Positions 538 to 63,770 of a stretch of 63,770 nucleotides of DNA are shown here, piece after piece (positions within the stretch are counted from its first letter, which is position 1; every line of letters begins with the position of its first letter). The notes beneath the pieces were generated by a model. That model saw only the letters and a list, made by a program, of their open reading frames with translations, was not told where the DNA came from and made no database searches. The DNA is from a virus. Lineage: Duplodnaviria; Caudoviricetes. The stretch spans positions 1-63,770 of the IMG/VR virus record IMGVR_UViG_3300044731_000783; one strand, given 5' to 3'. Position numbers and translations under genes: made by a program.

Positions 538-1469
538 TCTCTATCATATTTTACAAATTGATTTATTAGTAAATCACCATTAATCTCAAGTTTAAAACCT
601 TTTCCTTTTACTCTTAATGGTTTTGATGTATCAAACTTTTTTGGGAATTTAATTGTTAATTCACCATCAGGATGTGGTATTGAAAATGAATCTTCTTTTA
701 AATCATCAAGATCAAAAAAAGTATTATAAATTAAATTATTTCCAAATTTTTCAAACCCATTTTCTTTCTCAATCTGAACTCTAACTATTAAATCACCAAA
801 AATTCCATTTCTATAGTCTCCCATTCCTTGTAACCTAAAAAATTGACCATCATCAATACCATGTGGAATTTTAATTTCAATACTTTTCATTTCATCTTTA
901 CCCCCACTACCATTACACACAAAACAAGGATTTGGATTAATGGATCCGGAACCAGAACAAACCGGACATGCCATTGCAATCATTTGAATGAACATACCGC
1001 TACCCATTTGTTGCATAACTTGACCCATACCATTACACTGTGTACATACTTTTTTATCACCACCGGTACCACTACAAGTATCACAACTTGTTTTTCTTTT
1101 ATATGTAATTTCTTTTTTAGGTGAAAGGTATGATTCTAAAACACCAATATTTACATTAATATTTGTTGTATGTGTTCTTTGTTGTTGTCTTTGTTGACCA
1201 AAAACACTATTGAATAAATCACTCATAGAACTCCCAAACCCACCTCCACGCATTCCGGCAAATGGGTTTTTTCTTTCCGTATCGTATTGTCTTCTTTTTT
1301 CCTCATCACCTACTGTATCATAGGCTACAGATATTTTCTTGAACAGTTCTTCGTCGCCACCTTTATCCGGGTGATTTTCTTTTGCTAGTTTTCTATAAGC
1401 TTTTTTAATTTCGTCTTGTGTTGCAGTTTCTTCAACCCCTAATATTGAGTAATGTGTATCAGTATTCAT
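534..1469 (-). CDS. dnaJ: DnaJ co-chaperone (class A)
   Basis: J-domain with HPD, G/F-rich linker, four CxxCxGxG repeats, C-terminal domain (LRVKGKG). Confidence 0.95.
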   Translation of the reverse strand: MNTDTHYSILGVEETATQDEIKKAYRKLAKENHPDKGGDEELFKKISVAYDTVGDEEKRRQYDTERKNPFAGMRGGGFGSSMSDLFNSVFGQQRQQQRTHTTNINVNIGVLESYLSPKKEITYKRKTSCDTCSGTGGDKKVCTQCNGMGQVMQQMGSGMFIQMIAMACPVCSGSGSINPNPCFVCNGSGGKDEMKSIEIKIPHGIDDGQFFRLQGMGDYRNGIFGDLIVRVQIEKENGFEKFGNNLIYNTFFDLDDLKEDSFSIPHPDGELTIKFPKKFDTSKPLRVKGKGFKLEINGDLLINQFVKYDRD

Positions 1470-1514
1470 TTATTTTTAAATTTTGGTATTTTTATATAAT
1501 ATAGGAAATTGTTT

Positions 1515-2153
1515 ATGAAATATCTAATTGTTTTATTTAAAAATAAAGAAAGAAAACGAATAATCAAGAAATTTAAAACCTATGAGAGGGCAATAAACTT
1601 TTTTGATTCACAAATTTTAAAAAATAAAGAAATCATTTTTGATAAAGCAATAGAGAATGGTACTTATTGTTCATTTGAAATTGGTTTACTAGAAAAGGAT
1701 TCAAATAATTTTGATTTATACTTTGTTAAAGATGATATGGGTAGAAACTTAAAAATTAATCTTGACGATCCGGAATACAAAATATTAAACATTTCAAACT
1801 ACCTGGTTGAGGAGTTGATATTCGATATTTCAAAAAATAAAAAAATATCTTTTAATAAATTTGTTATAAACTATCTACCAAAAGGTTCAATAAAGTTAAT
1901 TTCTAAATTAAATAATAAGGTCGTTGTCCAGGATGATGATGTTGTGAATTTATTTTCACTAAAAAGTGATGAAGATTGTTATAGGTTTCTGGGTATTTTA
2001 GAAAATTATATGTTTAACAAAAAAAGGTCAGATTGTATCATAGTAACTGATGGTAATATAGCACAAAAAAAATACCTTTATAATCTATTACAATCAAAAG
2101 GTATTTCTAAATCAATTTTATACAAACAATCAACAACTCATTTTAAAGGTTGA
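1515..2153 (+). CDS. Hypothetical protein
   Basis: ~212-aa ORF divergent from dnaJ; ATG at 1515. Confidence 0.75.
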   Translation: MKYLIVLFKNKERKRIIKKFKTYERAINFFDSQILKNKEIIFDKAIENGTYCSFEIGLLEKDSNNFDLYFVKDDMGRNLKINLDDPEYKILNISNYLVEELIFDISKNKKISFNKFVINYLPKGSIKLISKLNNKVVVQDDDVVNLFSLKSDEDCYRFLGILENYMFNKKRSDCIIVTDGNIAQKKYLYNLLQSKGISKSILYKQSTTHFKG

Positions 2154-2469
2154 AAAGTCTTTTAAAGAATCCTTTTTTGGGTTCTTCGACTTTCTCAACC
2201 ACTTCCTCAACAACTTCATCAACAACTTCATCTTCAAATTTATATGAATTTTCCAAAATAAAAATTATTTCTGTACCAGAAATATCAATTTTTATTTGGT
2301 TTTCATCAATTTTTGTATTTTTTAAATTTCCTTTAATATAATTAAAATCCGCATAATCAACTTCGTATATTAAAACAGATTTACTTTTTGGGAATATTGC
2401 TTGGGCACCATCAACAATAAGTGCCAATTTTGTTAAGATATCCTCAAAACCGTTTTGATTCGTTTCCAT
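2143..2469 (-). CDS. Hypothetical protein
   Basis: 108-aa ORF, acidic EEVV repeats, amphipathic KKGFFKRLF tail. Confidence 0.7.
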   Translation of the reverse strand: METNQNGFEDILTKLALIVDGAQAIFPKSKSVLIYEVDYADFNYIKGNLKNTKIDENQIKIDISGTEIIFILENSYKFEDEVVDEVVEEVVEKVEEPKKGFFKRLFNL

Positions 2470-2621
2470 AATGTTTGTTTTTTTGGTTTTGGTATTATTT
2501 CATCTTTTTTCATTCCCTTTATTTCTTGAATGAATTTGGTTTTTTCTTTCTCTAGAGTTTCTTTGTCTTTTTTAATCTCGTTCAACAACCACTCCATCGT
2601 TTCCTCTTGTTTGGTCTTCAT
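2433..2621 (-). CDS. Small hypothetical protein (start may be 2597)
   Basis: ORF overlapping both neighbours in operon-like packing. Confidence 0.55.
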   Translation of the reverse strand: MKTKQEETMEWLLNEIKKDKETLEKEKTKFIQEIKGMKKDEIIPKPKKQTLWKRIKTVLRIS

Positions 2622-3006
2622 CTTCTATTGTTAAATTAAATTCTTTTATGTCAAATTTTAAAGTCTGTAGTTTATCTAAATTTTGTTTTTCAAATATTTT
2701 TTTTAACTCTTCAACTTTATTAAAAAATAATACTTCTTTTTCTTCCAACTCTTTATTATAATCTATAATTGATTTTAGATTTTGAATTGTTTTTGAAAGC
2801 TCTTCATCATTAAAATCAGAAACAAAAGATATTAACCTAGTACCTGGTTGTGATTTTTCTTGTTCTACAACCTTTCCTTCTATTGTATATTTTTTTGGTA
2901 ATTTCCAATTTTCGGGCAATTCAACATCAAAAGACAAATAATTTTTTAATTTTCTTATTGATTTTAGATATGGGAAAATTTTTTCAGTTTCAGTATAAAA
3001 AGTCAT
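2572..3006 (-). CDS. Hypothetical protein
   Basis: 144-aa ORF. Confidence 0.75.
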   Translation of the reverse strand: MTFYTETEKIFPYLKSIRKLKNYLSFDVELPENWKLPKKYTIEGKVVEQEKSQPGTRLISFVSDFNDEELSKTIQNLKSIIDYNKELEEKEVLFFNKVEELKKIFEKQNLDKLQTLKFDIKEFNLTIEDEDQTRGNDGVVVERD

Positions 3007-3010
3007 AATT

Positions 3011-3196
3011 TTAGTTTAATAGATAAGTTAATACATAAGAAATAAAAAAACCAAAAATAATAGTTTCTCTTTTAGAAATTACCATTTCTTTAGGTGGATT
3101 TTGTAAAAGAGAAACTATAAACATTGATAAAATTCTTAGAATACCAAGTAGTGAAAATATAAAAATAAATAAAAATAAATTGTTAATATCTAACAT
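3011..3196 (-). CDS. Small two-TM membrane protein
   Basis: 61 aa with two hydrophobic stretches. Confidence 0.65.
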   Translation of the reverse strand: MLDINNLFLFIFIFSLLGILRILSMFIVSLLQNPPKEMVISKRETIIFGFFISYVLTYLLN

Positions 3197-3198
3197 AA

Positions 3199-3378
3199 TT
3201 AATTTTTTCTAGCTTCTAAAATCTCACCTCTTAATGTTTTTAAAAATTCTCTCAATTCTTGTGATGTTTTTCTAGCTCTTGTTCCGGCAGTCTTATTACC
3301 AGCTTCAAATTTTTCAACATCAACAGTTAGTGAATCGACTAATGTTTTAATTTTTTGGATTGTTTTTTCTTCCGTCAT
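3199..3378 (-). CDS. Histone H1-like (Hc1 family) small protein (not in ORF track)
   Basis: Manual translation MTEEKTIQKIKTLVDSLTVDVEKFEAGNKTAGTRARKTSQELREFLKTLRGEILEARKN; the GNKxAGTRARK motif is typical of Hc1-like proteins. Confidence 0.85.
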   Translation of the reverse strand: MTEEKTIQKIKTLVDSLTVDVEKFEAGNKTAGTRARKTSQELREFLKTLRGEILEARKN

Positions 3379-3408
3379 TTTAATAAAAAATAAAAGTTTA
3401 TTGTTAAT

Positions 3409-3436
3409 AATATATGTGATTTATTTAGTTTGTCAA
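3409..3436 (-). promoter_or_regulatory. -35/-10 type promoter
   Basis: TTGACA-N16-TATATT upstream of the Hc1-like gene. Confidence 0.6.
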
Positions 3437-3906
3437 TACATTAATACCATATTACTATCTATTGATCGATAAATCGTCAATAACACATCTAAATCAGATT
3501 TTGTAAATGGTTTTTTTCTGTCAAACATTTCTGTAAAAAAATCCGGTATTGATTTTTTTACTTTATCTTCTGAATGTTTGTAAAAAATTTCAATAAAAAA
3601 ATCTTTAAAATAATCGTAATGATCTCCGGTTTCATTTATTAAAATATTTTCTTTTTCAAAATTTTTAAGATTTTCTTTCCAACACCAATTAAAATGGTTT
3701 AAATTATCATCTTCAGACATTGTTATTTTACTTTCGTTATCATCTGAAAAACCACCTAAATACGTGTCATAAATTATCATAGATAATGAATATGTGAAAT
3801 CATAAAATAATTCCATTTTTTCAAATATTATATTGTTGGTTTTGAACCATATATCAACCTCATTATATTCTAATGGTTTACTGATATAATTAAAAAAATT
3901 CTCCAT
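3433..3906 (-). CDS. Hypothetical protein
   Basis: 157-aa ORF; TTTACA-N16-TATAAT upstream. Confidence 0.75.
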   Translation of the reverse strand: MENFFNYISKPLEYNEVDIWFKTNNIIFEKMELFYDFTYSLSMIIYDTYLGGFSDDNESKITMSEDDNLNHFNWCWKENLKNFEKENILINETGDHYDYFKDFFIEIFYKHSEDKVKKSIPDFFTEMFDRKKPFTKSDLDVLLTIYRSIDSNMVLMY

Positions 3907-3954
3907 AAGACTATATCCTATGGAGAATTATAAGTTCATTTAAGATTTTGTAAA

Positions 3955-5229
3955 TTATTGAGTCTTTTGACTATACCCCATTAATTGTTGTATTCTACTA
4001 AACTCCTCGTTTAATTTTTTATTTTCAACACTTTCTGTTTTTATTTTAATTCCATTACCACCATTTTCACCAACACCATCAGTTACAGGTTGTTTTGATT
4101 TACGATAAGCAGTCATTTTTGCTTTATGATATTTTTGTTCTTTTCTTTTTTTGTTAATTCTTTCACCAAGTTCAGTTTCTTCAGCATTAGCCCATTCTGG
4201 ATTATTACCAGTTCTTGATGAACCAGCAATATTATCGTCCATCCATTTATTATCGTATTGAACTTCGTCTGGCACTAAATCCTCCATTCCTGGGTGCATA
4301 AAATCATCTAAAAATTCTTTACCATCATCAGACATTGTATATTTTTTTGTGTTCATCTTAGCTAACTGACCATTTCCTTTAGGAAAATGTTTAGGGTTTG
4401 TTTCATACTTACCTTTAGAACCATCTTTTAGATAGTCTGTAAGTTTTTTGGCAACAGAGTCAAGGTATTCTTTATTTTCTTTACCAGATCCTTTATGTGC
4501 TTTTTCATATGCTGAAAGTCCTTTTGGTTGTACACCTTTTTTAATATTATCTTTTTTCTTTTCTTCATTAACAATTCCTTCGATGATATCAATAATTTCA
4601 TTTTCAGTAAACAATGCTGATTCTTCGCCATCAACTAATCTATATAATGTTTCTTCTAAATTTGAGTTATCAGTATATTCTCTATCACCAAATTTAAATT
4701 TACCACCTTTTTTAGTTTTTAATAAGGCACCAGTGAAAGCATTTCCTTCCTCAACTTCTTCATCCATTCCTGCGGTAAAATCTGAAGCTCCGGTACCAAA
4801 TTCTAAAATATCACCTTTTTTCATTCCACATTCAACACACTGTCCTTCATAAAATTCACTAGAACCACATTCACAAACATTATCTTCCATATATTCACCT
4901 TTATTACCGCACTCCATACATTCTTTTTCTTTCATCTCACCTCTTAATCGTTTGAAGTCTTCTCTATCTAGTCTACCGTTTTTATTTGTATCTAATTTAC
5001 TTTGTTTACCATACAATTTTTCCATAACTTCAGCTGACATATTTCCACATTCCATACATTCCCCTTCAACCATAGGTGAACCACATTCACAAGTTTCACC
5101 TTCAGCAACATAGTCAAATGAGGTTGGTGCATTTTTAAGTTTTGCGTAAATTGAATCTGCTTTTTCTTCAAGTGTTTCTGTTAAAATTCGATTTACCAAT
5201 CTATCTAAATAATTTTTACTACTATTCAT
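3955..5229 (-). CDS. Putative head-associated protein with repeated Cys motifs and an EF-hand-like loop
   Basis: CECG/CMECG repeats, DTNKNGRLDREDF, C-terminal LNEEFSRIQQLMGY; TATTTAT upstream. Confidence 0.6.
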   Translation of the reverse strand: MNSSKNYLDRLVNRILTETLEEKADSIYAKLKNAPTSFDYVAEGETCECGSPMVEGECMECGNMSAEVMEKLYGKQSKLDTNKNGRLDREDFKRLRGEMKEKECMECGNKGEYMEDNVCECGSSEFYEGQCVECGMKKGDILEFGTGASDFTAGMDEEVEEGNAFTGALLKTKKGGKFKFGDREYTDNSNLEETLYRLVDGEESALFTENEIIDIIEGIVNEEKKKDNIKKGVQPKGLSAYEKAHKGSGKENKEYLDSVAKKLTDYLKDGSKGKYETNPKHFPKGNGQLAKMNTKKYTMSDDGKEFLDDFMHPGMEDLVPDEVQYDNKWMDDNIAGSSRTGNNPEWANAEETELGERINKKRKEQKYHKAKMTAYRKSKQPVTDGVGENGGNGIKIKTESVENKKLNEEFSRIQQLMGYSQKTQ

Positions 5230-5253
5230 AATATATTTTTTTATAATAAATAC

Positions 5254-5961
5254 TTACAAGTTTTTGTTTATTTTGATTTCCTGTAATATTATTTCTTTAA
5301 TATTATCTTCACTTAAACCATACTTCATTGACATTTTTTTGATAGTAGTTTTAAGAGTTTCATTTTCAAAAATATTAAGAGCTTTAATATCACCTTGATT
5401 ACAATATGGAAATCTTTTACATTTTTTTTTAACCTGGACGAATTTACCTCCTGGAATTTGTGTTTTTGATTTACCTCTCCAATCTTTTTTACTTGTTGAT
5501 TTAGCCCAAGCTTTAGGTGTTACATAAACACCAACACCAGCACCAGCACTGGTAGCTTCTTTAGTTTCAACTTTCTTTTTTTCTCCTAATGATAACATAG
5601 GTTCAAAAGTTCCTGACATGCCACCAGTTGACATAGCCTCTTTATTTTCTTCTTTTTTACCTCGACTATTAAGAATAGAATTTAAAAATTCATTCACTTG
5701 TTCGGAATCTTTTAGATGTTTTTTTATTTCTTGTCTTATTTTTGTATTAGACAATTTTTTATTTTTAACCAATTTAAGAATCTCAAGTATTGACGATTCT
5801 TTTTTTAAGAATTTCAATGGTTCGTAATCCATATCTTCTTCTCTTAATTCTTTAGCATTATTCATCACTGAAGCTCTGGCTTTTGCGGCATCTGGTCCTA
5901 GAACTTGATTGTCAGTTAAAGCAGCGTTTAATGATTTTTCAAAATTATTTATTAAATCCAT
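5254..5961 (-). CDS. Hypothetical, probably head-associated protein
   Basis: 235 aa; two KEA-x-S..G..P segments; KKKCKRFPYCNQG. Confidence 0.6.
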   Translation of the reverse strand: MDLINNFEKSLNAALTDNQVLGPDAAKARASVMNNAKELREEDMDYEPLKFLKKESSILEILKLVKNKKLSNTKIRQEIKKHLKDSEQVNEFLNSILNSRGKKEENKEAMSTGGMSGTFEPMLSLGEKKKVETKEATSAGAGVGVYVTPKAWAKSTSKKDWRGKSKTQIPGGKFVQVKKKCKRFPYCNQGDIKALNIFENETLKTTIKKMSMKYGLSEDNIKEIILQEIKINKNL

Positions 5962-6209
5962 TACATACCTTTAAATTTAGACTCCCAGAAACTTCTTTGT
6001 TGATACATTATTGTATAAAATTCTCTGAAAGATTTGATTATCAAGTCTTTTAACTGACCGTCTAATTTACCACCTCTTTTCATCTCTTTTGAAATCCTTT
6101 CAACAAGTTTATCCTCAAATTGTTTTGTTGTATTTGAGTTTAGAAAATCTTTAATTTCTTTTCTAACTAACGTTTCAATTTCCCTTTTATCTGATTGACT
6201 TAGTGGCAT
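5961..6209 (-). CDS. Hypothetical protein
   Basis: 82-aa ORF, TAATG-type translational coupling on both sides. Confidence 0.7.
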   Translation of the reverse strand: MPLSQSDKREIETLVRKEIKDFLNSNTTKQFEDKLVERISKEMKRGGKLDGQLKDLIIKSFREFYTIMYQQRSFWESKFKGM

Positions 6210-6619
6210 TATTTAAATAATTGTATATAGGTTATTGTTGCAAAAACAAATCCTGAAACAATCTCAATGATGTTGTTTTTGATTTTAATTTTTTTTAATT
6301 GATCTCGTAAATCTTTATTATCCTCTTCAATCAATTTGTATTTTTCTTCGGTACTTTTTATAAGTACTTCACTATTACGATCTTTTTCTTCCAAATCTTT
6401 AATTACTGTATCTTGTTTGTTTGTTTTTTTAACTAATTCATCAATTTCTTTTTTATCTAAAATTGATAATTTTTTTAATTTATCTAACTCATTTAAATCC
6501 TTTAAGACTTCTCTTCCAATCTCGGATGGAAAACAAATAACACTAGTATCTTTTATTTCTTTTTGACCAAAAGTCAAAAATGAGAATGTTAAAAAAATAA
6601 ATAAAATTAAATTTTTCAT
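6209..6619 (-). CDS. Signal-peptide/coiled-coil/TM protein, possible spanin-like
   Basis: N-terminal hydrophobic signal, coiled coil, C-terminal TM; near amidase. Confidence 0.45.
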   Translation of the reverse strand: MKNLILFIFLTFSFLTFGQKEIKDTSVICFPSEIGREVLKDLNELDKLKKLSILDKKEIDELVKKTNKQDTVIKDLEEKDRNSEVLIKSTEEKYKLIEEDNKDLRDQLKKIKIKNNIIEIVSGFVFATITYIQLFK

Positions 6620-6621
6620 AA

Positions 6622-6975
6622 TTAATATTTGTATCTAGCTTTAAAGGCACTATCAATTTGTTTATTTGTCCATTTAGGAATTTCCTTATCTTTTATCTCA
6701 TAATAGTTATTAACTGTTGTTTTTTGTGATTTAATATTTTCAATATTTTCATCAATTCTTTGTATATCTTTTTTACTAACCGCTATTGAGTCGTCTAGGT
6801 CTTTTTGTTTCTTTTTTAAATCTGTAATTTTTAAATCCAATTGATCTAATTTATATTTTAATAAATCACTTTTATCTGGTGCTGGAGTAAAAATTTTAAT
6901 TAATAAAAAAATTGTGGTTATTGTTAATATAACCAACATAATTTCTTTAAAGTATTTTAAAAAAAATTGTTTCAT
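6622..6975 (-). CDS. N-terminal TM plus coiled-coil protein, possible inner-membrane spanin-like
   Basis: Single TM followed by heptad-rich region; lysis-like context. Confidence 0.45.
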   Translation of the reverse strand: MKQFFLKYFKEIMLVILTITTIFLLIKIFTPAPDKSDLLKYKLDQLDLKITDLKKKQKDLDDSIAVSKKDIQRIDENIENIKSQKTTVNNYYEIKDKEIPKWTNKQIDSAFKARYKY

Positions 6976-7607
6976 TTATCACTTGTTTTTTTTCTAACGG
7001 CAATAACTTTTGACCATTTTGTTTTAAACTTCTCATAATAAGTTTTAAGTTTTTGAATCATTTCAAGGAAATCTTCGTCTATTTGCATCATTGTTCCATT
7101 TATATAAACGCCGTTATTTTCTCCTATTGAAAAGAAGAATTCAACGTCATATTCCGTTATTTTTCCGGACCATTCTACATTATTTGGGTATAGATTTAAT
7201 TTGTTGAAGTCAACAATTTCTGAAACCTCTGAAACAAATTCATCCATACTTTCTTGAAAAGCGGTTTTGTCATCAGTTGTTAGTTGTAAATCTTTTGTTT
7301 CTTTACCATGAATGTATAATATTCCACCTGAAATTCTATAACCCTTTTTTTTGTCTGATTTTATACTATCACTATCGTCTTTTTCTTCGTCATCAGCTGT
7401 TTCATATTCAATATCTCTTTCAATACTTTTTTTAGGATTATCTCTTTTAGTTATATTATTTGGTGTGTCGATTTTACCATCTTCACCTTGTTCTAAAATA
7501 AGTCCATATCTTTTTTTAATTTCGGTAGATTCCTGAATTAATTTTTCACCACCTAAAATTGCTCTAGATTTTTTTAATAAATTTCTAATTTCTTCACTAT
7601 TACTCAT
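6972..7607 (-). CDS. Hypothetical protein
   Basis: 211-aa ORF with acidic linker. Confidence 0.7.
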   Translation of the reverse strand: MSNSEEIRNLLKKSRAILGGEKLIQESTEIKKRYGLILEQGEDGKIDTPNNITKRDNPKKSIERDIEYETADDEEKDDSDSIKSDKKKGYRISGGILYIHGKETKDLQLTTDDKTAFQESMDEFVSEVSEIVDFNKLNLYPNNVEWSGKITEYDVEFFFSIGENNGVYINGTMMQIDEDFLEMIQKLKTYYEKFKTKWSKVIAVRKKTSDK

Positions 7608-8196
7608 TGTCTAATTTTTTAATAAAATATTCAAAATCAAAAGCCGGACTTAAATCTGTAGCATCTTCATCAATATTTGATCTTGTTATGATACCACTAA
7701 ATGTTTCCAATCTATTTGTTTTTGTGTTATGTCCGATACAAATTGGACTGATTTTAAATTTTTCGGAGAGTTTTATACACAAATTTGCAGTTTCATCTAA
7801 CTGTTTTTTTGTATATGGTTCCCAGAAAAAATAATCTCGCCATTTTTTATCAAAAACCTTTTCCTTATAAATACTTCCTAACCAATTAATGTGATAACTT
7901 TTTAATGGTTGTTTTTCCAACCAACCTAAATTTTCTAAAGAAATTATTATCGATTGTTTATCGTATATTGGGTTGTTTAATAATTTACCGTAATTTTCAT
8001 CATCCATTGTTTGTAATATAATACCTTCTTTTGTTATTATATAATGCGGTAATTTATTATATTTGTTGTTAAACCTATGTCTTAAACTTGTTAAGTACTC
8101 GTCACCATTTCTAGAAGTATGTGTTAATATTATTTGGATTTTCTTATCTTCTTTACCGATATGATTATAAATTTTTTTGTCAAGTATTTTAGACAT
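7600..8196 (-). CDS. N-acetylmuramoyl-L-alanine amidase-like protein (Amidase_2 fold)
   Basis: IILTHTS, PHYIITKEG, SIIISLEN, PYTKKQL, CIGHN, DLSPAFDF motifs. Confidence 0.75.
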   Translation of the reverse strand: MSKILDKKIYNHIGKEDKKIQIILTHTSRNGDEYLTSLRHRFNNKYNKLPHYIITKEGIILQTMDDENYGKLLNNPIYDKQSIIISLENLGWLEKQPLKSYHINWLGSIYKEKVFDKKWRDYFFWEPYTKKQLDETANLCIKLSEKFKISPICIGHNTKTNRLETFSGIITRSNIDEDATDLSPAFDFEYFIKKLDNE

Positions 8197-9229: not shown

Positions 9230-9239
9230 ATTTTATATA

Positions 9240-9779
9240 TTATAAATAAACAACTTGTATATTTAAAGTATTAAATTGTTCAAGGGTAACTCTTTTAGCA
9301 CTTTTATTCTGATCTTTGGTTTTTAAAAAATTACCATTTTCCGAAAATGCTGATGTTATTATATTAAAAAAATTCCCATCTTTACTAATTAAAAATTCCA
9401 TATAATCAAAATTTTTATCATCTTCATTATCATCTCTTTTTTTTATGAAAATTAGTTTATTATTTTCTGGGTTTATTTTATTAAAACTTTCATAAACTTT
9501 GTTTAATTCAGACCTAAAAGTATTTCTAACCATGCTATCTGGTACCGCCAATCTTGGTTGAGCTTGAAATTTAGAACGTCTTGTTTCGATATATTCTTTA
9601 TATAATTCAACTATTTCATCATATGAAAGATTTCCAAATCTTTCCTCTCTCTGGTGATATGTAGATTTTAACTGAATTAACTTATTATCAATTAATTCTG
9701 AAAAAATTAATTTACCGCTTTCTTTTTTTCTACCACTTTCAAATAAAATAGTATTTTTTAATACGTTAATAAGTTTCAT
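9240..9779 (-). CDS. Hypothetical protein with leader-like N-terminus
   Basis: Start reassigned to 9779 (MKLINVLKNTILFES) because the longer start lies within a terminator and TATTTAT sits at 9784-9790. Confidence 0.7.
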   Translation of the reverse strand: MKLINVLKNTILFESGRKKESGKLIFSELIDNKLIQLKSTYHQREERFGNLSYDEIVELYKEYIETRRSKFQAQPRLAVPDSMVRNTFRSELNKVYESFNKINPENNKLIFIKKRDDNEDDKNFDYMEFLISKDGNFFNIITSAFSENGNFLKTKDQNKSAKRVTLEQFNTLNIQVVYL

Positions 9780-9793
9780 ATTTATAAATATAC

Positions 9794-9934: not shown

Positions 9935-9938
9935 AATA

Positions 9939-12486: not shown

Positions 12487-12490
12487 ATAT

Positions 12491-54576: not shown

Positions 54577-54602
54577 TTTAATTTTGTTTTCTTTGGTTAT
54601 AA

Positions 54603-54632
54603 AACGCTAACAATACTTGATATGTTAGCGTT
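54603..54632 (-). terminator. Hairpin downstream of RNR, probable terminator
   Basis: AACGCTAACA-N10-TGTTAGCGTT perfect 10-bp stem; T-run on the minus strand. Confidence 0.6.
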
Positions 54633-54660
54633 ATGTCATTACCCCAGGTTACTTTCATAA

Positions 54661-56520: not shown

Positions 56521-56545
56521 ATTTACAAATTTAATTATTTTATTT

Positions 56546-57937
56546 TTAATTTTCTACTGATTTTGTTTTTTCTTTTTGTTGTCTCTTTTCCAACAATTCC
56601 TTAACCCTTTGTCGTTGTCTTTCCTCTTTTTGTTCTTCTAAACCTAAGAATGTTGTTGTAGATTCTGTATCAATATCTAGCATTGCATTATCAAATTTGC
56701 AATTTTCAAATACCACACCGTCATCTCCTATACGAGATTTGGTAATTGCTATTGTGGCAAGTTTCATTTCTTTTTGTTGTAATGACTTTGCTACTGTTAT
56801 AATAACGTGACCTACTTGTGCTTTCTTAATTGATCCACCCATTTGGTCCGTTGTTACAACATCTGATGATATTGATGAACGGTTACCTTGTGTTGCGGTC
56901 CAACCAACTATGCTTAGTTCGTGACACATAGCTTCAAACGCTCTCATTACAGACCCTTCACTCTTCCATTCGTCCCCTAGGTTTTTATCCGGAACAACAC
57001 AATCAATATAATCTAAAATTACCATATCTATCTTTGTTCCGTCAGCAATCATCTTTCTAATCTCATTTTTGATTTGAAGCATTGTTTTGGTGTCAGATGG
57101 TAATTTTTTCAAGATTAGTTCATTTGGCATAGATTCCTTGATTTCTTTTACTTTTTGCATTACCTCATCCCTTTTTTCTGACAATTCGTCAGGATGAATT
57201 TTTGTCCAAAGGGTAAAATGTTTCCTTTGTATCACTTTTGGGTTGTCTTCAAAAAAGATTTGAAGAACGTTAAATCCAAGGTTAAATGCGTGATTCGCAA
57301 TCTTTGTTGTTAGAGTAGATTTTCCAACTCCGGTCGGTGCAAGTATTACACCAATTTCACCTTTAGCTAATCCTCCTTTCATTAGTCTATCGATACCAGG
57401 TATTCCCATTGGGATTGGGTGTCTGTAATCGTCATCTAGCACTTGATCTAGGTTTGAAAAGACATCCATAGCACTTGTGTCTTTTGAACCAACCAATAAG
57501 GCTTCTCTTACTAATTCTTCTAACGTGTCGTAGCTTTCAAACTCTCCACCGTCAATAATTTTTTGTGCCTTTTTCATCACTTTCTGTAACTCTTGTTGTT
57601 TACAGAATTTAAGTGCTTTTTCTTGTACGAAATCCACCCCCTCGATAGGTGCATCCTTGATTTTCTTAACAGTATCAAGGACAACTTTAATAGCAGTTTC
57701 CTGTTGTAATTCAGATTTGGCTACTTGTTCCAGAGTATCAAATGATGGTGTGTGGTCGTATTTTTTATAATACTCTTTTATCATCTGAATGATAATTTTA
57801 AAATACTTATTTTCAAAATAATTATTCTCAATTACATCAATGATTGAATGTGAAAATTCTTTGTCTACAATAATTTGGTTAAGTAATTGAATTTGAAAAT
57901 TGTTTCCGAGATACTCAAAGTTTTTGTTAGTCGCCAT
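56546..57937 (-). CDS. Replicative DNA helicase (DnaB/gp41-like)
   Basis: APTGVGKS, ILDYID, TATQGNR, KSR. Confidence 0.93.
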   Translation of the reverse strand: MATNKNFEYLGNNFQIQLLNQIIVDKEFSHSIIDVIENNYFENKYFKIIIQMIKEYYKKYDHTPSFDTLEQVAKSELQQETAIKVVLDTVKKIKDAPIEGVDFVQEKALKFCKQQELQKVMKKAQKIIDGGEFESYDTLEELVREALLVGSKDTSAMDVFSNLDQVLDDDYRHPIPMGIPGIDRLMKGGLAKGEIGVILAPTGVGKSTLTTKIANHAFNLGFNVLQIFFEDNPKVIQRKHFTLWTKIHPDELSEKRDEVMQKVKEIKESMPNELILKKLPSDTKTMLQIKNEIRKMIADGTKIDMVILDYIDCVVPDKNLGDEWKSEGSVMRAFEAMCHELSIVGWTATQGNRSSISSDVVTTDQMGGSIKKAQVGHVIITVAKSLQQKEMKLATIAITKSRIGDDGVVFENCKFDNAMLDIDTESTTTFLGLEEQKEERQRQRVKELLEKRQQKEKTKSVEN

Positions 57938-57976
57938 ATATTTTTCTTATGTTAGTAATGATAAATACTACTACAA

Positions 57977-58420
57977 TTAGATAAATTGTGGATAAAAATA
58001 ATTAAATTTTTTATCTGAAAAAATGTCAGTAAGTTCCGACAATATGCTTTTCAGCTTTGGGCGTAGGTCTACGGTATATCTCACCTTTGGTGGGTATACT
58101 TTTGCGTCAAATGATCTCTGACAAATTGTCATATTATCTACCTTAATATAAAGGTTAAAATTTTCATCTCCCTCCGTAATTGATGTGTTTAACACCTCCG
58201 GATTTTCCATAATTTCATATTTGTTCTCCAACATATAAACTACGGATCTCATTTTTAAATCAGTTTGTAGGGAGTTACAAAAAGATTTGATGTAGTCATA
58301 AAACTCTTCTGATTTGTGGGCATTTTTATTAAACCCTTTAACATTGAAAAATCTTTGTACCACAATGTTGTCATTACACATTAACAAAAATTCAACTTTT
58401 GTTACATCTTGTTCTCTCAT
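57977..58420 (-). CDS. Hypothetical protein in the replication operon
   Basis: 147-aa ORF. Confidence 0.75.
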   Translation of the reverse strand: MREQDVTKVEFLLMCNDNIVVQRFFNVKGFNKNAHKSEEFYDYIKSFCNSLQTDLKMRSVVYMLENKYEIMENPEVLNTSITEGDENFNLYIKVDNMTICQRSFDAKVYPPKVRYTVDLRPKLKSILSELTDIFSDKKFNYFYPQFI

Positions 58421-58424
58421 TTTT

Positions 58425-59441
58425 TTACTTTTTTGGTTTGTTTCTAAAATTTGTTTTTTCTTTTCTCGATAGTTTTAAAAATGGTCTTAAAAAATTTACC
58501 CAGGCGTCGTCACCTTTTGGTAGAAATTTAAAAAATCCGTCCTCCATCATCATTCTAATTAAGTTTCTATGTCCTCTTCCGTCTGGATCCAATGACTCGG
58601 AGTAATATAAACTAACTAGTTCTTTTCCTTCATCTGAAATAAGTGGGTTTGCAAGGTCCACCAATTTCTCATTTATGACAAAAAACTCTTCTCCAAAAAT
58701 CCCTTCTTTGGTTTTACCACTAAGTAGATTTTGTAAGGCTACATTTCCTTTTTGTTCTGTTAACAACTTTTCAGCCTTGGTTAAAATATCGGTATATTTA
58801 ACCTCACTTTCAAGTATTTCTGGAAATAATTTAAGAAATGTTTTTTCACCAAGATAAAAGATACCATCAATATTATCCGAACTATCACCGGTTAATATTT
58901 TGTAGGTTTTAATATTATAGTGGGGGATTTCAGATGAATCCATCTTAATTCCATCCCCCAGTTTATAATATCTCTTATGTTGTGGTGAGTATATAGAGAC
59001 CCTATCGGAAATAAGTTGTGTTAAATCCCTATCTGAAGAAAAAATAGTCTTATCTTCATCCTGTGATATTTGACAATAATAAGCGACCAAATCATCGGCC
59101 TCTGATTGTTCAACTTCTAATTGTCTTACAAACATCTCTTCAAGGTATTGTTTTACCCTCTCTTTTTGTTTTAAAAAAGATTGTTCTTTAAAATCTTCGT
59201 CGTCTTTTTGTTTACGATTTAATTTGTACTTTGGGTATATAATTCTTCTTTGTGATGATCCGGTATCGCTATCCCAAAACACAACAACTTTATTGTAGTT
59301 ATTTTCTTCTAAAAATCGTCTTAGAGTGTTTAAAAAATGCCAAGTACCACCAACGTGTTCACCTTTGTTAAAAAAGTCTCTAACACCGTGGAAACCGATT
59401 TTTAGAAGGTTATTACCATCTACCAATAAAGTTTTAGTCAT
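58425..59441 (-). CDS. 5'-3' exonuclease/flap endonuclease (PolA N-terminal/T4 RNase H-like)
   Basis: LLVDGNN, YKLNR, EADD, SSDRDLTQL, GDSSDNIDG. Confidence 0.93.
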   Translation of the reverse strand: MTKTLLVDGNNLLKIGFHGVRDFFNKGEHVGGTWHFLNTLRRFLEENNYNKVVVFWDSDTGSSQRRIIYPKYKLNRKQKDDEDFKEQSFLKQKERVKQYLEEMFVRQLEVEQSEADDLVAYYCQISQDEDKTIFSSDRDLTQLISDRVSIYSPQHKRYYKLGDGIKMDSSEIPHYNIKTYKILTGDSSDNIDGIFYLGEKTFLKLFPEILESEVKYTDILTKAEKLLTEQKGNVALQNLLSGKTKEGIFGEEFFVINEKLVDLANPLISDEGKELVSLYYSESLDPDGRGHRNLIRMMMEDGFFKFLPKGDDAWVNFLRPFLKLSRKEKTNFRNKPKK

Positions 59442-60456
59442 TTAATTCTTCGTTTGATTGGTTTGACAATACTGGTTCTTTTTCAACAATGTAGTCACCA
59501 AGGAATTCACTAAATATTGCTTCCATAACTGGTACACATATTGAGTTACCGGCAAGTGAGACATGTCCTTTTGTTGATAATGATGTTGTTAACAATAAAT
59601 CAATATCTTCGTCACGAACACCCATAAATCTATATCCCTCTCTTGCCGTGATATTTCTTACTCTACCATCTTCAGTCATAATCTGTGGTGAACCACTTGT
59701 TGTAAGACAAGGTGAGCAACCGTCAACAGAATATATTCTTCTTGTTTGGTCATAATTTACATCATCTCTTCTTGCTATTAACTTACATATTGTATTTCCT
59801 TTTGGTTGGTGTGGTGTGTATGGACAGTCAATGAATAATTCTGGGTCCTGTGTATCCTCAATAAAAGACCTCATTGGGATTCTTGTTTTTTTGTAGTTAT
59901 CAACATTCTCCATTCTTGTTGCAACATCAGTATGGTCTCCATTAAGAACTGAAATCATAAATACTCTTTCTCTATTTTGTGGACAACCAAAGTCGGCACC
60001 ATTAAGTAATCTCCAATATGATGTGTAACCAAGACCTCTTAAAAAATAGATATGTTTTTTAAAATTTTCATAATGATTTTTTGAGATAAGGTTTTTAACG
60101 TTTTCCATTAACAAATACTTAGGTCTATTTGTTGATAAAATTCTTTCAACATCAAATAATAACCCACTTCTAGTCCCTTCTTTAATACCTCTTTGAACTC
60201 CTGAGATTGAAATGTCTTGGCAAGGGAATGAATATGTTAATAGGTCACACTCTGGAAAATTATTGTGGTCAATTTTTGTAATATCACCTAAATTACCCAT
60301 TTGTGTTTTATGTAAAACATCATAACACTCATTTGCTTGTTTGAAATTGTCACAGTTAGCAACATTTTCATGGTCAACACCAATATATTTAAGTGCTAAT
60401 TCTTGTGTTCCATACCCGGAAAATAAAGAAACAACTTTTAATTTATTCTTGTTCAT
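59434..60456 (-). CDS. DNA (cytosine-5)-methyltransferase
   Basis: LFSGYG, SFPCQD, MENV, QNRER, AGNSI. Confidence 0.93.
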   Translation of the reverse strand: MNKNKLKVVSLFSGYGTQELALKYIGVDHENVANCDNFKQANECYDVLHKTQMGNLGDITKIDHNNFPECDLLTYSFPCQDISISGVQRGIKEGTRSGLLFDVERILSTNRPKYLLMENVKNLISKNHYENFKKHIYFLRGLGYTSYWRLLNGADFGCPQNRERVFMISVLNGDHTDVATRMENVDNYKKTRIPMRSFIEDTQDPELFIDCPYTPHQPKGNTICKLIARRDDVNYDQTRRIYSVDGCSPCLTTSGSPQIMTEDGRVRNITAREGYRFMGVRDEDIDLLLTTSLSTKGHVSLAGNSICVPVMEAIFSEFLGDYIVEKEPVLSNQSNEELND

Positions 60457-61453
60457 ATACCTTTTCTTCTTTTAAATCAAATTCACCATCTACACCTATA
60501 ATTGTTTTCCAATATTCGGCATATTCACTTTTGTAAGTCTCAATAGACTTTTTTTCTTCTGTAGCATCTTTTCCAGGTAAGAAACCGTGTGGGGTTACAA
60601 TAATCTTACCATCTTCAAAACCAAGTCCATTGATATGGTTTTTCATAACAGATACCTTTGTTCTTGATGCAAACTTCACAGTTCTTTTATCTTTAGTAGC
60701 TGTAATTTTTGTTGTTCCAGCACCTTTTTGATTTCCGTATAAAAATACCAAAGATGAGTTTAACCAAATTGCTTCACCACCTTTTGCTTTAATTTTTGGT
60801 TGTCCAAATGGATTATCTGGTAATTCAACCCAAGGTTGGTTTACAATAATTAAAGTGTTCTCGTATTTTGAATCTGCTTTTCTTGATCCGGAAATTCTTT
60901 GATTAATACCCATACCAATCTTATCTGCTAAAACACTTGCATTGTGTTGTTTCCCACCTTTACCTTCGTAAGTCATTTTACAAGGGACAGAACCAACTGA
61001 ATCCCACATAATACATAATGAATAGTCTAACTCACCCTTTTCTTGAGCATCTAACAAATCATTAATATAATCTGTAATTTGTTCAATATAACTAAAATTA
61101 TTATTAAATAGAAAGAATCCGTCCCAAGTTAATTCACCAGTTTCTTCATCAACAACTTCCTCACATTCAAAACCCATTAGTCTTGAGTGTTCAAAAGACC
61201 ATTTTTGCTCTGTAATAATGAATACCGGAAGAATTTCTTTTTTCTGTGCATCAACAGCTGTTTTTACAAGTGCTGTTGTTTTACCAGTATCAGAATGTCC
61301 CAAAAACATATTGATATGCCCCATAGCAGGTCCTGGAAGACCAACAGCATCTAAAAATGCTGGACCTAAATCAAAATATCTTTGTGGTTTGTATTTTGCG
61401 TCCGAAGAGAATTTTTTCTTAATCGAACTAAAGTCAGTTTTTTTTATTGCCAT
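60443..61453 (-). CDS. recA: RecA/UvsX-like recombinase
   Basis: GHSDTGKT, WDSVG, IIVNQ, KGGEA. Confidence 0.88.
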   Translation of the reverse strand: MAIKKTDFSSIKKKFSSDAKYKPQRYFDLGPAFLDAVGLPGPAMGHINMFLGHSDTGKTTALVKTAVDAQKKEILPVFIITEQKWSFEHSRLMGFECEEVVDEETGELTWDGFFLFNNNFSYIEQITDYINDLLDAQEKGELDYSLCIMWDSVGSVPCKMTYEGKGGKQHNASVLADKIGMGINQRISGSRKADSKYENTLIIVNQPWVELPDNPFGQPKIKAKGGEAIWLNSSLVFLYGNQKGAGTTKITATKDKRTVKFASRTKVSVMKNHINGLGFEDGKIIVTPHGFLPGKDATEEKKSIETYKSEYAEYWKTIIGVDGEFDLKEEKVYEQE

Positions 61454-61466
61454 ATACTTTTTTTAT

Positions 61467-62147
61467 CTAAATATAGTTAATCATTTTATAATAATCATCA
61501 TTAAAGTTTGGATTTAATTCAAAATTACCGAGATTATTTTTAGTCATTTCGTCAATTTTTTTATAAATAATTTCTTTTGGTGTATCACCAAATCCAGAAA
61601 CGTGATATGTATTCATTCCCCATCTATAAATCATAGTTGGTTTACCATTATCTTCATAAATTTTTGCATTATTTTTAAACGTAATATCAAAATCTTCACC
61701 AAAATTTTTGTCCGGAAATTGGATTCTATTTATATAACTTTTAGTATAAACATTTCCATTATTTACGTTTCCACCGATTTTATCAAACTTATTATGTATA
61801 AAAAAATAATGGGTCTTTGGTCTGTATATTTCATACCCAGGATTTGCATTAATAAAACCTTCGGTTATGTTTAAAGCATCCGGACCTAAAAGATCGTCAT
61901 CATCTAATCGATAAATGTAATTATAAGAACATTTACTAAAACCCCACTCAAGTTTTTTGGAAATACTTGTAAACCTCTCTTTTAAGTTAAAAATTTTTAC
62001 TTGTGGGTGATTAAATGTATAAACATTATTAGGGCTATCATTTATTACAACCATCTCACTATTTGAATTATTTTGTAATAAAAAAGACTGTATTGCCTCT
62101 TCAAGTAAGTGGTGTCTTTGGTATGTTAAAGTTAAAACTGAAATCAT
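61467..62147 (-). CDS. Glycosyltransferase family 2
   Basis: ISVLTLTY, VVIND, RLDDDD, GED. Confidence 0.85.
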   Translation of the reverse strand: MISVLTLTYQRHHLLEEAIQSFLLQNNSNSEMVVINDSPNNVYTFNHPQVKIFNLKERFTSISKKLEWGFSKCSYNYIYRLDDDDLLGPDALNITEGFINANPGYEIYRPKTHYFFIHNKFDKIGGNVNNGNVYTKSYINRIQFPDKNFGEDFDITFKNNAKIYEDNGKPTMIYRWGMNTYHVSGFGDTPKEIIYKKIDEMTKNNLGNFELNPNFNDDYYKMINYI

Positions 62148-62159
62148 ATAAAAAAATAA

Positions 62160-62194
62160 AACTTGGACACCTTGTCTAGGTAGATGTCCAAGTT
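62160..62194 (-). terminator. Intrinsic terminator after SSB
   Basis: AACTTGGACA...TGTCCAAGTT 10-bp stem followed by T-tract on the minus strand. Confidence 0.8.
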
Positions 62195-62202
62195 AATTAA
62201 TA

Positions 62203-63069
62203 TTAGAATGGTAACTCTTCATCAACATCATCACCGGCTTGTGGGTCCTCAACTTTTGTTTCAGTTTTTGTTTTTCCACCACCCATTGAGATTTCTTCCT
62301 CAGAAGTATTACTATAGATGTATTTTCCAGCATCAGAATCCCATCTTGGTGTTTCACCACGAGCAATCGCTTCAAGATATTCAGCTGGTTTTTTAGAGTA
62401 TACATCTTCCCAAGTAAGTTCGTCTTCCAACCAAGATGTCATTGTTTCTTCGTCTTCGTGAACTGGAGTTGGGTCATCATACATAACTGTTTGGATTACA
62501 GTGTAGAAAGCTCCTTTTGGAGTTTTTGCTTTTGTTAATTCGAGGATTAAATCTCTTCCTTTTTCACCATCAGCAACATCACCTTTTGCTTTATAGATTG
62601 GAATAATTTTATCAAAAATCCCTTCTTGTTTGTAATTGTGTTTGAATCTCCAGAATTTAGGTCCATCCTGTTCGTTGTCACGGTCAATTACCTTAACAAT
62701 ATAAAACTTACGAGGTTTGTATTGTTTTGCCAATTCTTTGTCAGATTCTTTACCAGTTGACATAAGAACATCATAAACTTCACTTAAAGGTGAACGTTCA
62801 TTGTCATTTTTTCCTGGATCATAGAATTTCTGCCATTTTCCGTCCACAAGAATTTCGTGGAACCATACCTCTTTAAAAGGTGAAGATCCGTCTGGAGTAG
62901 GTAAAATACGGATTTTCTTTTGTGCTTGCTTTTCGTTGTCTTTAAGTATTGCAGCAAAATACTTTTTCATTCTTTCTTCTTGTGACATCTTTGCAGTGGA
63001 AGAAGAACCACTTTGTTTTGAGCTTTCATACTGAGCCAAAACCGCATCTAAAACATTGTTTGTCGCCAT
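62203..63069 (-). CDS. Single-stranded DNA-binding protein (gp32-like)
   Basis: IRILP, aromatic OB-fold-like core, GRDL, acidic tail ending DEELPF. Confidence 0.8.
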   Translation of the reverse strand: MATNNVLDAVLAQYESSKQSGSSSTAKMSQEERMKKYFAAILKDNEKQAQKKIRILPTPDGSSPFKEVWFHEILVDGKWQKFYDPGKNDNERSPLSEVYDVLMSTGKESDKELAKQYKPRKFYIVKVIDRDNEQDGPKFWRFKHNYKQEGIFDKIIPIYKAKGDVADGEKGRDLILELTKAKTPKGAFYTVIQTVMYDDPTPVHEDEETMTSWLEDELTWEDVYSKKPAEYLEAIARGETPRWDSDAGKYIYSNTSEEEISMGGGKTKTETKVEDPQAGDDVDEELPF

Positions 63070-63099
63070 ATATATATTAATTAAAAGTTTACAATAGAA

Positions 63100-63128
63100 A
63101 ATATAAGTTAAATTAGTGTCGCAGTCAA
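63100..63128 (-). promoter_or_regulatory. -35/-10 type promoter
   Basis: TTGACT-N17-TATATT. Confidence 0.7.
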
Positions 63129-63146
63129 TAAGGTATTAAAAAAATA

Positions 63147-63175
63147 GTTTAAGGTCGTAAATTTCGACCTTAAAC
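63147..63175 (-). terminator. Intrinsic terminator
   Basis: GTTTAAGGTCG-N7-CGACCTTAAAC 11-bp stem with downstream T-tract on the minus strand. Confidence 0.85.
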
Positions 63176-63176
63176 A

Positions 63177-63770
63177 TTACATCATATTATTATCCTCATT
63201 TTCGTCATAATCATTAAATGATGTTTTAACTTCTTCCGGTGAATAATCTTCAATATCATCAGATGTTAAAACATATTCATTTTTTCCTGATTGTCTCATC
63301 TCTTCTTGTTTGTCAACAAAAAAGTCAGACAATTTTTGTTTAAATGGCCCAGAATCTAAACTTCTTAATTCAAGTTTTTCTTCTGGAGTTTTTGGTTTAA
63401 ACTGATCAAATTTAGTTTCAAGACTATTAATCTTTTGTACTAACTGATCCATTTCACCTAATTTTGTTTCTAAAGTTGATAATTGGTTAAATAAATTATT
63501 AAAATATTCCTCTTGTTTATCTGACATTGATTTTTGTGTGTCAACAAGATCTGTAATATCTAATTCTTCTTCGCCACCTTCTTCACCTTCAGTTTCTGTA
63601 TCTAATTCTTCAACATCCGCATCTTGTGCAATATCAACTGGTGGTGCTCCTGTTGGAGCTGGTGTTCCTCCCGGTGGTGGTGGAACATCTCCTTCTGGTG
63701 CCGGCGGCGCTCCTCCCGGTGGTGGTGGAACATCTCCACCTGGTAATGGTAAGTCTCCTCCCGGTACTGG
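63177..63770 (-). CDS. Pro-rich/acidic coiled-coil protein (start lies beyond the right window edge)
   Basis: The 116-aa ORF extends in frame to the edge: PVPGGDLPLPGGDVPPPPGGAPP...EELDITDLVDTQKSMSDK. Confidence 0.8.
   Translation of the reverse strand, partial: PVPGGDLPLPGGDVPPPPGGAPPAPEGDVPPPPGGTPAPTGAPPVDIAQDADVEELDTETEGEEGGEEELDITDLVDTQKSMSDKQEEYFNNLFNQLSTLETKLGEMDQLVQKINSLETKFDQFKPKTPEEKLELRSLDSGPFKQKLSDFFVDKQEEMRQSGKNEYVLTSDDIEDYSPEEVKTSFNDYDENEDNNMM
63666..63737. repeat. 27-bp direct repeat, 45-bp period (GDVPPPPGG)
   Basis: tcctcccggtggtggtggaacatctcc at 63666 and 63711. Confidence 0.9.

Follow-up and report, generated by a model that had tools for sequence, protein, structure and literature searches.

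Excess of CCGG in a clade of uncultured freshwater jumbo phages and its association with a type of phage-encoded C5-cytosine methylase

Why is the palindrome CCGG so frequent in an AT-rich phage genome that encodes three C5-cytosine methylases? The question is raised by the virus record IMGVR_UViG_3300044731_000783. The stretch analysed, hereafter the window, is this entire linear IMG/VR record of 63,770 bp, with a GC content of 30.1% and a completeness of 22% as estimated by CheckV. Since its relatives in IMG/VR reach 294-304 kb, the window represents a fragment of a jumbo phage genome. A prediction made from the letters alone (the original prediction) had proposed that the CCGG sites are actively maintained, either as a methylation self-mark or through biased T:G repair tied to the phage methylases. 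The CCGG excess is a real DNA property of one clade of uncultured freshwater jumbo phages. As its explanation we tentatively put forward, at somewhat less than even confidence, a combination of codon context, relief from purging by methylation, and a methylation-linked bias.

CCGG occurs 145 times in the window, against 31.9 sites expected from base composition. The observed-to-expected ratio is 4.43 by composition, the highest among all 256 tetramers, 3.58 under a first-order Markov model and 1.36 under a maximal-order one. For contrast, GGCC occurs 17 times, CGCG eight times and GCGC four times, and the CpG dinucleotide is depleted to 0.65. The sites are spread over the whole window (15, 21, 33, 24, 21, 20 and 11 per 10-kb bin, the final bin comprising 3.8 kb). 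The early estimate of about 50 sites in the first 23 kb against about 10 expected agrees with the count of 52 against 11.5. In total 141 of the 145 sites lie inside open reading frames (ORFs), which were called by a greedy choice of the longest ORF with no gene finder used; 58 are read as CCG-G, 81 as xCC-GGx and two as xxC-CGG, with hyphens marking codon boundaries. Codon-corrected nulls were obtained from 300 shuffles each of the coding DNA of the window. Shuffling synonymous codons within genes yielded 51.4 ± 5.7 CCGG against the 141 observed (ratio 2.74, z 15.7), and shuffling the codon order yielded 47.0 ± 5.9 (z 15.8). A dinucleotide-preserving shuffle, a null that is unable to move the 58 CCG-G sites, gave 112.6 ± 4.9 (ratio 1.25, z 5.8). 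Under the synonymous null, CCGG has the highest ratio of all tetramers both in the window (135 vs 49.9, for somewhat more strictly chosen ORFs) and in the related 224-kb record G041 (424 vs 197.6). The enrichment hence outlasts the correction for codon and dipeptide content.

The codon choices that form the word depend on the following bases. Among the proline codons of the window, CCG makes up 35% before a G that is followed by a base other than G and 1-6% elsewhere. The threonine codon ACC reaches 37% before GG, against 16% before G followed by another base and 7-8% elsewhere; AAC, GAC and TAC do not increase before GG. Because such context-dependent choices form CCGG in two reading frames, the signal is a property of the tetramer and of the DNA, not of translation. 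Synonymous choices such as ACC-GGT had been pointed out in the original prediction, and ACCGGT is indeed found 32 times in the window. Overall, 139 of the 488 potential synonymous CCGG positions (28%) are used, unevenly across genes (chi-square p 0.007). The four sites noticed early in one 222-nt gene, at 22275, 22311, 22350 and 22402, all fall within a single ORF (Table 1). Accessory and core genes show no difference in how often their potential positions are filled (5/14 vs 134/474, p 0.55).

Related loci were fetched around a virion gene (67 loci) and around two of the methylase genes, M3 and M2 (80 loci each); loci shorter than 8 kb were dropped, and the remaining ones have CCGG at 0.0 to 5.7 times the level expected from composition. 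Six large records were analysed over their full length. Three of them are 100% complete by CheckV: G015 (294 kb; 293,850 bp), without a single CCGG (0-fold) or GATC, and G028 (304 kb), with 104 CCGG (0.59-fold), encode no C5-methylase; G045 (296 kb) has 115 CCGG (0.74-fold) and four C5-methylases. G003 (214 kb, 71% complete) carries 136 CCGG (1.13-fold) and no C5-methylase. The rich records are G002 (92 kb, 31% complete, 153 CCGG, 3.13-fold) and G041 (224 kb; 223,671 bp, 76% complete), which holds 479 CCGG (3.73-fold) and four C5-methylases. In G041 every full 20-kb piece contains 34-52 CCGG, and TCGA is lacking entirely. Among sister phages whose core proteins are 70-90% identical, CCGG lies anywhere between 0 and 4.4 times the expectation. 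In a tree of DnaB proteins the window falls in a clade with 99% support, in which nine of the ten rows stand at 2.0-fold or above and one at 1.5-fold. This tree has 31 rows, leaves out loci shorter than 9 kb or with a match of fewer than 430 residues, and keeps three rows between 1.3 and 2.0 unclassified. The label rich or poor requires at least five changes, only one of which is forced by well-supported branches, and 1 of 500 label shuffles was as clustered as the real labels. Since the labels cluster on the tree, the CCGG-rich state is a clade trait; several independent origins are possible.

How much of the excess is specific for CCGG depends on the baseline. A liking for C or G at third codon positions before G is family-wide: where the G is followed by another base, the fractions are 0.14-0.17 for xCC and 0.12-0.20 for xCG in five genomes of any CCGG status. 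Words containing CAG or CTG are also avoided by the window, G041 and G045. In context-matched comparisons, the odds ratios for xCC before GG and for CCG before G are 2.67 (p 7e-8) and 3.68 (p 7e-10) in the window and 2.46 and 2.83 in G041, against 0.36 and 0.42 in G045, 0.21 and 0.29 in G028, and 0 for both in G015. The 4.4-fold excess thus splits into a part of about 1.6-fold owed to codon usage and a CCGG-specific part of another 1.6- to 3.7-fold, the latter varying with the baseline. The over-representation claimed by the original prediction is therefore real, but smaller than five-fold once the codon-context habits of the family are allowed for. At CCGG sites the window has a CpG/TpG ratio of 0.94 and G041 one of 0.78; other CpG contexts lie at 0.00-0.37 (0.00 for TCGA in G041). 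The excess extends to DNA outside any chosen ORF of at least 150 nt, where G041 has 28 CCGG against 4.6 expected and G002 six against 0.9; the corresponding values are eight against 4.6 in G045, six against 8.2 in G028 and seven against 5.0 in G003. Genes for tRNA were considered as a source of the non-ORF sites of G041 and were discarded, none being found in this record.

The three C5-methylases foreseen in the original prediction are encoded in the window (M1, M2 and M3; Table 1). The ORFs of M3, M2 and M1 score, in this order, 200.7, 142.0 and 160.9 bits with PF00145 (cut-off 22) and 184.4, 136.9 and 151.0 bits with TIGR00675 (cut-off 100.65). Searches of PDB, NCBIfam and PADLOC returned family membership only and no specificity. 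Small C5-methylases of 265-300 amino acids (aa) are arranged in tandem arrays of one to six genes; membership in the array differs between relatives, and in the close relatives of the window the array adjoins a sigma-factor gene. Judged from sequence, the arrays look like a cassette store of specificities. M1 has an 82% identical ortholog in the CCGG-depleted G045 and is probably not the CCGG enzyme. The orthologs of M3 (75-98% identity) lie in loci that span 0.0 to 3.8 times the CCGG expectation. The best solved relatives of M3 are 4dkj and 8c56 (E 3e-41), which we take to be the CpG methylase M.MpeI.

M2 behaves differently from these two enzymes. Orthologs at 79-89% identity are found in G041 and across 14 loci (L210-L223) with CCGG at 1.0 to 5.7 times the expectation, and the closest matches in G045 reach only 49-54% identity. 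The catalytic Pro-Cys motif GGSPCQSFS is present in M2 and in all 15 aligned relatives. After clustering of the methylases at 68% identity, the cluster of M2 comprises 14 distinct loci, which are not phylogenetically independent of each other. CCGG there has its lowest value at 0.7 and its median at 2.2, while the medians of all other 4-bp palindromes are at most 0.6. The M2 cluster is the only methylase cluster with a CCGG median above 1; in the clusters C3 and C4 (seven loci each) the values are 0.0-0.3 and 0.0. Apart from the M2 type, no gene restricted to CCGG-rich relatives was found in the left and right thirds of the window. Both large CCGG-rich records have an M2 ortholog, and no close ortholog is present in the depleted ones. 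CCGG abundance consequently tracks methylase content as the original prediction had expected, the two complete genomes free of C5-methylases lying at the low end and the window and G041 carrying the M2 type. M2 is most likely the enzyme covering CCGG, and is the best candidate by its distribution.

In tblastn searches of phages, the M2 matches were at most 57% identical and came from Cellulophaga, Synechococcus, Flavobacterium and Pelagibacter phages, annotated as DNA methylase. Ten loci were matched in bacterial genomes, with full-length identities of at most 50% and one partial match of 67% over 121 residues. These bacterial relatives were rejected as a source of specificity, being too distant to borrow it from a neighbouring restriction gene. 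Lineages with other small C5-methylase clusters show AGCT raised to 1.3-1.9 times the expectation (L226-L228, L235-L236, L258-L259, L263, L266-L267 and L270-L271), with CCGG and GGCC at or near zero and, in C4, GCGC as well. In L284, GCGC and CGCG reach 2.6 and 2.8 times the expectation. These excesses of AGCT, GCGC and CGCG may represent the same phenomenon with other words.

The individual sites behave as if drawn at random. The gaps between CCGG sites have a coefficient of variation of 0.99 in the window (G041: 1.00), and the largest of them match those of random draws from the potential sites. Compared with L215, an 86% identical and equally rich locus, 22 of 35 aligned CCGG are kept, which equals the mean conservation of tetramers (0.63). 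In turn, 16 CCGG of L215 correspond to a different word in the window, in most cases CCAG or CTGG. No longer motif surrounds CCGG in the flanks examined in the window and G041; A/T accounts for 83% of the flanking positions in the window and for 77% of those in G041, the overall share being 70%. CCCGG and CCGGG are relatively shunned in the window, CCG-GG being used in two of 37 cases. A methylation self-mark under site-by-site selection, one of the two readings of the original prediction, is not borne out by this Poisson-like spacing, average conservation and lack of a longer motif. Overall, the interpretation given in the original prediction is supported in part.

In the explanation that we favour, the codon-context habits of the family, with C or G at the third position before G and the CAG and CTG alternatives disfavoured, would set a neutral CCGG level of about 1.6 times composition, since the synonymous shuffle yields 51 sites against 32 by composition. 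This codon-context lift is evident in the data. CCGG-cutting restriction enzymes would exert a strong pressure in the habitat, under which C5-methylase-free relatives deplete or purge CCGG; the purged genomes argue that such restriction is a major pressure on the family. The clade of the window would methylate CCGG by a phage-encoded C5-methylase, most likely M2, and so be relieved of the purging. Here the association between methylase and CCGG is an observation, from which we infer the specificity of M2 and the methylation itself. The further rise of 1.6- to 3.7-fold above context would result from a bias, linked to methylation, by which mutation or mismatch correction favours C:G over T:G. 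Where CCGG is methylated or half-cognate, this bias would act as a ratchet like very-short-patch repair, supplied by the host. This mechanism is the least certain of the three components. A bias in mutation or repair is preferred over selection on sites because the sites turn over, scatter randomly and exceed the expectation outside ORFs too. Supply by the host is proposed because the phage shows no gene for such a ratchet.

Several results weigh against this explanation. No Vsr protein (PF03852) scored over the cut-off in the window (0/1), in large relatives (0/5) or in further records (0/30), all but three of the records searched being fragments (the window 22% and G041 76% complete); in 29 of the 30 further records CCGG was at least 2.0-fold in the stretch examined. 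The Vsr-like gene considered in the original prediction was thus not recovered from these phages. HhH-GPD, UDG and MutS_V were not found in the window and four large relatives. The words CTGG/CCAG, predicted as donors under biased T:G repair, are not depleted (300 vs 265.1 ± 9.2, ratio 1.13), in a test with little power at equilibrium. Relative to G045, the rise of CCGG is drawn from all synonymous alternatives and not chiefly from the transition partners. Against the transition neighbour alone, the odds ratios are only 1.57-1.88 (window and G041; p 0.024 to 1e-4). The maximal-order Markov ratio is similarly low in G041 (1.53) as in the window, where about eight tetramer pairs outrank CCGG by this measure. 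A 63% identical, M2-like enzyme with a similar target-recognition core sits in three loci with no CCGG (AGCT 1.4-1.6-fold), so the assignment of M2 to CCGG is not secure. Some carriers of M2 show just 1.0-1.6 times the CCGG expectation, and the M2 type is absent from the examined stretches of the CCGG-rich loci L276, L234 and L277. CCGG methylation of the phage DNA is itself deduced from sequence. As the enzyme responsible for the bias was not among the phage sequences examined, a host origin is purely conjectural, and so is an effect of the methylase itself. By the latter route, the methylase would shield half-cognate sites or bias mismatch processing there. That site-specific C5 methylation by a phage builds up its own target word without a Vsr-type enzyme appears quite unlikely to us.

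The sole Vsr-like stretch, with 20.3 bits, lies within a 538-aa protein of the CCGG-rich relative G044 (L290 128-1744). Its ORF combines DUF7487, a sub-threshold PD-(D/E)XK match (MTES_1575/Vsr-like, 17-20 bits) and a Mom-family domain, and the protein may be another DNA-modification enzyme.

Relaxation alone, in which protected CCGG drifts without any positive force to a high neutral equilibrium given by the codon context of the family, is a serious though on balance unlikely rival. It is serious because the maximal-order Markov excess is small and the set holds no truly neutral reference genome. The dinucleotide-preserving null, the family-wide preference for CCG/CGG and the avoidance of CAGG/CCTG (145 vs 256 under the codon null in the window) and CGGG/CCCG, which steers choices to CCGG and CTGG, fit with it. 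So does the continuum of 1.0- to 5.7-fold among M2 carriers, as would result from differing times since the gain of the methylase. Relaxation does not account, however, for context-matched fractions that are alike everywhere (0.13-0.18) while the CCGG-forming choices rise to 0.21-0.35 in the rich genomes, nor for the persistence of the excess against the transition neighbour alone. The top rank of CCGG among tetramer ratios under the codon null and the non-ORF excess (6-fold for both G041 and G002; 0.7- to 1.7-fold for G045, G028 and G003) likewise speak for an additional force. A related 'refuge' idea, by which CCGG is high only through avoidance of CAGG/CCTG and CGGG/CCCG, was discarded: G045 shuns CAGG too and has an xCC-GG fraction of 0.06, and the C:T and G:A odds ratios remain at 1.57-1.88.

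Direct selection for many methylated CCGG as a self-mark, read by a factor of phage or host and serving, for instance, strand discrimination in repair, protection from a nuclease or distinction from host DNA, seems improbable. Such selection would suit an excess that is taken from all synonymous alternatives rather than from transition neighbours only, is uniform across 64 kb and 224 kb, and persists through a clade. The random spacing with gaps as in the null, a positional conservation that does not exceed the tetramer average, with sites gained and lost on either side, and the lack of an extended motif point the other way, as does the use of just 28% of the potential sites, varying by gene. 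As to readers of a mark, a MutS homolog was not found in the five records searched for one, and a MutH-type reader does not appear in the annotation, though no search was aimed at one. Phages are often similar to their hosts in oligonucleotide usage, and CCGG might be copied from a CCGG-rich host via common mutation and repair or via codon-pair adaptation. The nearest cultured-phage relatives of M2, from phages of Cellulophaga, Flavobacterium, Synechococcus and Pelagibacter, point to no single host. Mimicry of this kind is very improbable in view of sister phages that span 0- to 4.4-fold with closely similar core proteins and are nearly equal in their non-CCGG codon-context fractions. We therefore keep the combination of codon context, relief from purging and methylation-linked bias as the preferred explanation, at the tentative strength given above.

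Vsr repair enriches CCWGG and depletes CTWGG-type words. Similar to Dcm/Vsr of E. coli, the presumed target of a C5-methylase is over-represented in the window instead of eroded, and the proposed cause is a biased correction of T:G to C:G. In contrast to Dcm/Vsr, the searched phage records contain no Vsr gene, CTGG/CCAG is undepleted, the word is CCGG, the genome is viral, and sister lineages of the same phage family show the opposite extreme. In E. coli, as passages of two articles describe, dcm lies in an operon with vsr, and Vsr repairs the T:G mismatches that arise from deamination of 5-methylcytosine (PMC4924334; PMC12907096). A second comparison is offered by the cyanobacterial palindrome HIP1 (GCGATCGC) and its alternates. 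According to Elhai 2015, an abundant palindrome goes with a specific methylase there, and a ratchet of mismatch repair that depends on methylation has been put forward; among the alternates is a type based on rCCGGy, together with an rCCGGy-specific methylase (PMC4390886). HIP1 is described in parts of a further article as 15- to 300-fold over-represented, selected for retention and periodically spaced (PMC5861425). The phage, too, has an abundant GC-rich palindrome, for which M2, with orthologs in both large CCGG-rich records, is the candidate methylase. Its CCGG is, in contrast to HIP1, a 4-bp word that is enriched 2- to 4-fold, turns over and is randomly spaced. The excess of 4.4-fold over composition and 2.7-fold over the codon null stays below the 15-fold of HIP1, and neither periodic spacing (gap variation 0.99-1.00) nor retention (22/35 kept vs 0.63 for all tetramers) is seen.

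Avoidance of restriction sites is well represented in the family, since the window shuns CATG, and in relatives CCGG, GATC or TCGA is completely purged from 224-294 kb. This purging fits the general pattern outlined in the parts consulted of Rusinov et al. 2018 (PMC6286503), where over-represented sites are mentioned only as a slight excess and solely for methyl-directed (Type IIM) enzymes. CCGG in the clade of the window is the opposite case. The Bacillus phages SPR and phi3T use phage-encoded C5-methylases as anti-restriction devices, and here too several C5-methylase genes are present, presumably shielding the phage DNA from host enzymes. In place of one multispecific protein, the family has separate small enzymes of 265-300 aa. 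Abundant methylases are likewise reported, in the section consulted, for chloroviruses (PMC7248222). The passages returned by full-text literature searches held no report of an enrichment of a phage methylase's own target word.

CCWGG, which the original prediction had also regarded as frequent, is so by composition (58 sites vs 22.9). In coding DNA its 56 sites exceed the synonymous shuffle (40.1, z 4.9) but not the codon-order shuffle (53.0, z 0.5), and since the latter nearly matches the count, the abundance of CCWGG reflects mostly amino-acid and codon content. CATG is strongly avoided (25 vs 176 by composition; 24 vs 110.4 under the codon null, z -12.5), and GATC is reduced in coding DNA (83 vs 146.6 under the codon null, z -7.4). 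These two words behave as restriction-site avoidance predicts, and CCGG does the opposite. The codon null is likewise not reached by TCGA, AGCT, TGCA and CTGC/GCAG. The neighbour word that is shunned flips by lineage, being CAGG/CCTG in the window, G041 and G045 and CTGG/CCAG in G028, G015 and G003. Between these two groups xCA-GG stands at 0.20-0.25 against 0.56-0.60, and CCA-G at 0.54-0.61 against 0.12-0.22.

Nearly all genes of the window lie on the minus strand. They include a T4-like set of replication and recombination genes, which encodes a DnaB-type helicase, a primase, a gp32-like protein, a RecA/UvsX-like protein (by a weak match), a 5'-3' exonuclease and an SbcC-like protein with a metallophosphoesterase. 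Further products are a ribonucleotide reductase, a sigma-70-type factor, DnaJ and a cell-wall amidase, together with proteins of the baseplate and virion. For the reductase gene and the small ORF adjoining it (54349-56520), G041 has orthologs of 86-93% identity and the complete genomes G045, G028 and G015 have none. The virion structural gene of Table 1 is absent from G041 and G045 and 98% identical to a gene of L005, whose 20 kb stand at 0.9 times the CCGG expectation. Because of this identity to a gene of a CCGG-poor relative, it is probably a module acquired by recent exchange, whose composition has not yet adapted to its surroundings. The N6/N4-type methylase is 100% identical in L215, has no ortholog in G041 and G045, and gives weak matches in G028 (26%), G015 (36% over 55 residues) and L276 (36%). 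A 263-aa ORF (13944-14735) overlapping its gene is also 100% identical in L215 and absent from all other relatives; the region 13067-14735 may be a recently moved methylase or a cassette resembling a restriction-modification system.

Neither megablast with 10 kb of the window nor tblastn with a conserved structural protein gave a match to a cultured phage. All 24 of the listed lake-water metagenome runs contained 50% or more of the words sampled from a 10-kb stretch of the window. Logan contigs of four lake runs, compared over 20 kb, were short and mostly identical pieces, and no mutation spectrum at CCGG emerged among the variants listed. Within the ORF 22465-23505, at 22669-23335, three of the four lake runs show an abrupt rise of the summed contig depth, from about 1-7 to 400-650, and X20 has 22.7; this is probably a repetitive stretch common to other organisms.

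Table 1 Positions of the CCGG excess, the methylase genes and two ORFs with extreme CCGG usage in the window
Feature	Position	Strand	Remarks
CCGG excess, window-wide	1..63770	strandless (palindrome)	11 to 33 sites per 10-kb bin
C5-cytosine methylase M1, 283 aa	9957..10808	-	PF00145 7e-47; in tandem with M2
C5-cytosine methylase M2, 294 aa	10805..11689	-	PF00145 3.8e-41
N6/N4-type DNA methylase	13067..13984	-	PF01555 7.6e-43; absent from the original prediction
222-nt ORF with four CCGG	22244..22465	+	3/3 potential synonymous CCGG positions filled
Virion structural gene	30031..31251	-	0/9 potential CCGG positions filled
C5-cytosine methylase M3, 340 aa	59434..60456	-	PF00145 5.4e-59

Short palindromes in phage genomics are usually read one way, as avoidance, and a single family here displays both extremes. 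CCGG ranges from zero in a complete 294-kb genome to one per 440-470 bp, and the switch follows a variable array of small C5-methylases. The family hence offers a natural system for the rate at which restriction and methylation reshape synonymous sites, and allows the specificities of methylases of uncultured phages to be assigned from genome statistics. It also lets one ask whether methylation alone ratchets its target word upward, a question left open by Dcm/Vsr and HIP1. Methylome and population data are within reach because the phage is common in lake water. If true, self-building target words would be a general rule for methylase-bearing phages, and oligonucleotide excesses would reveal the specificities of their methylases.

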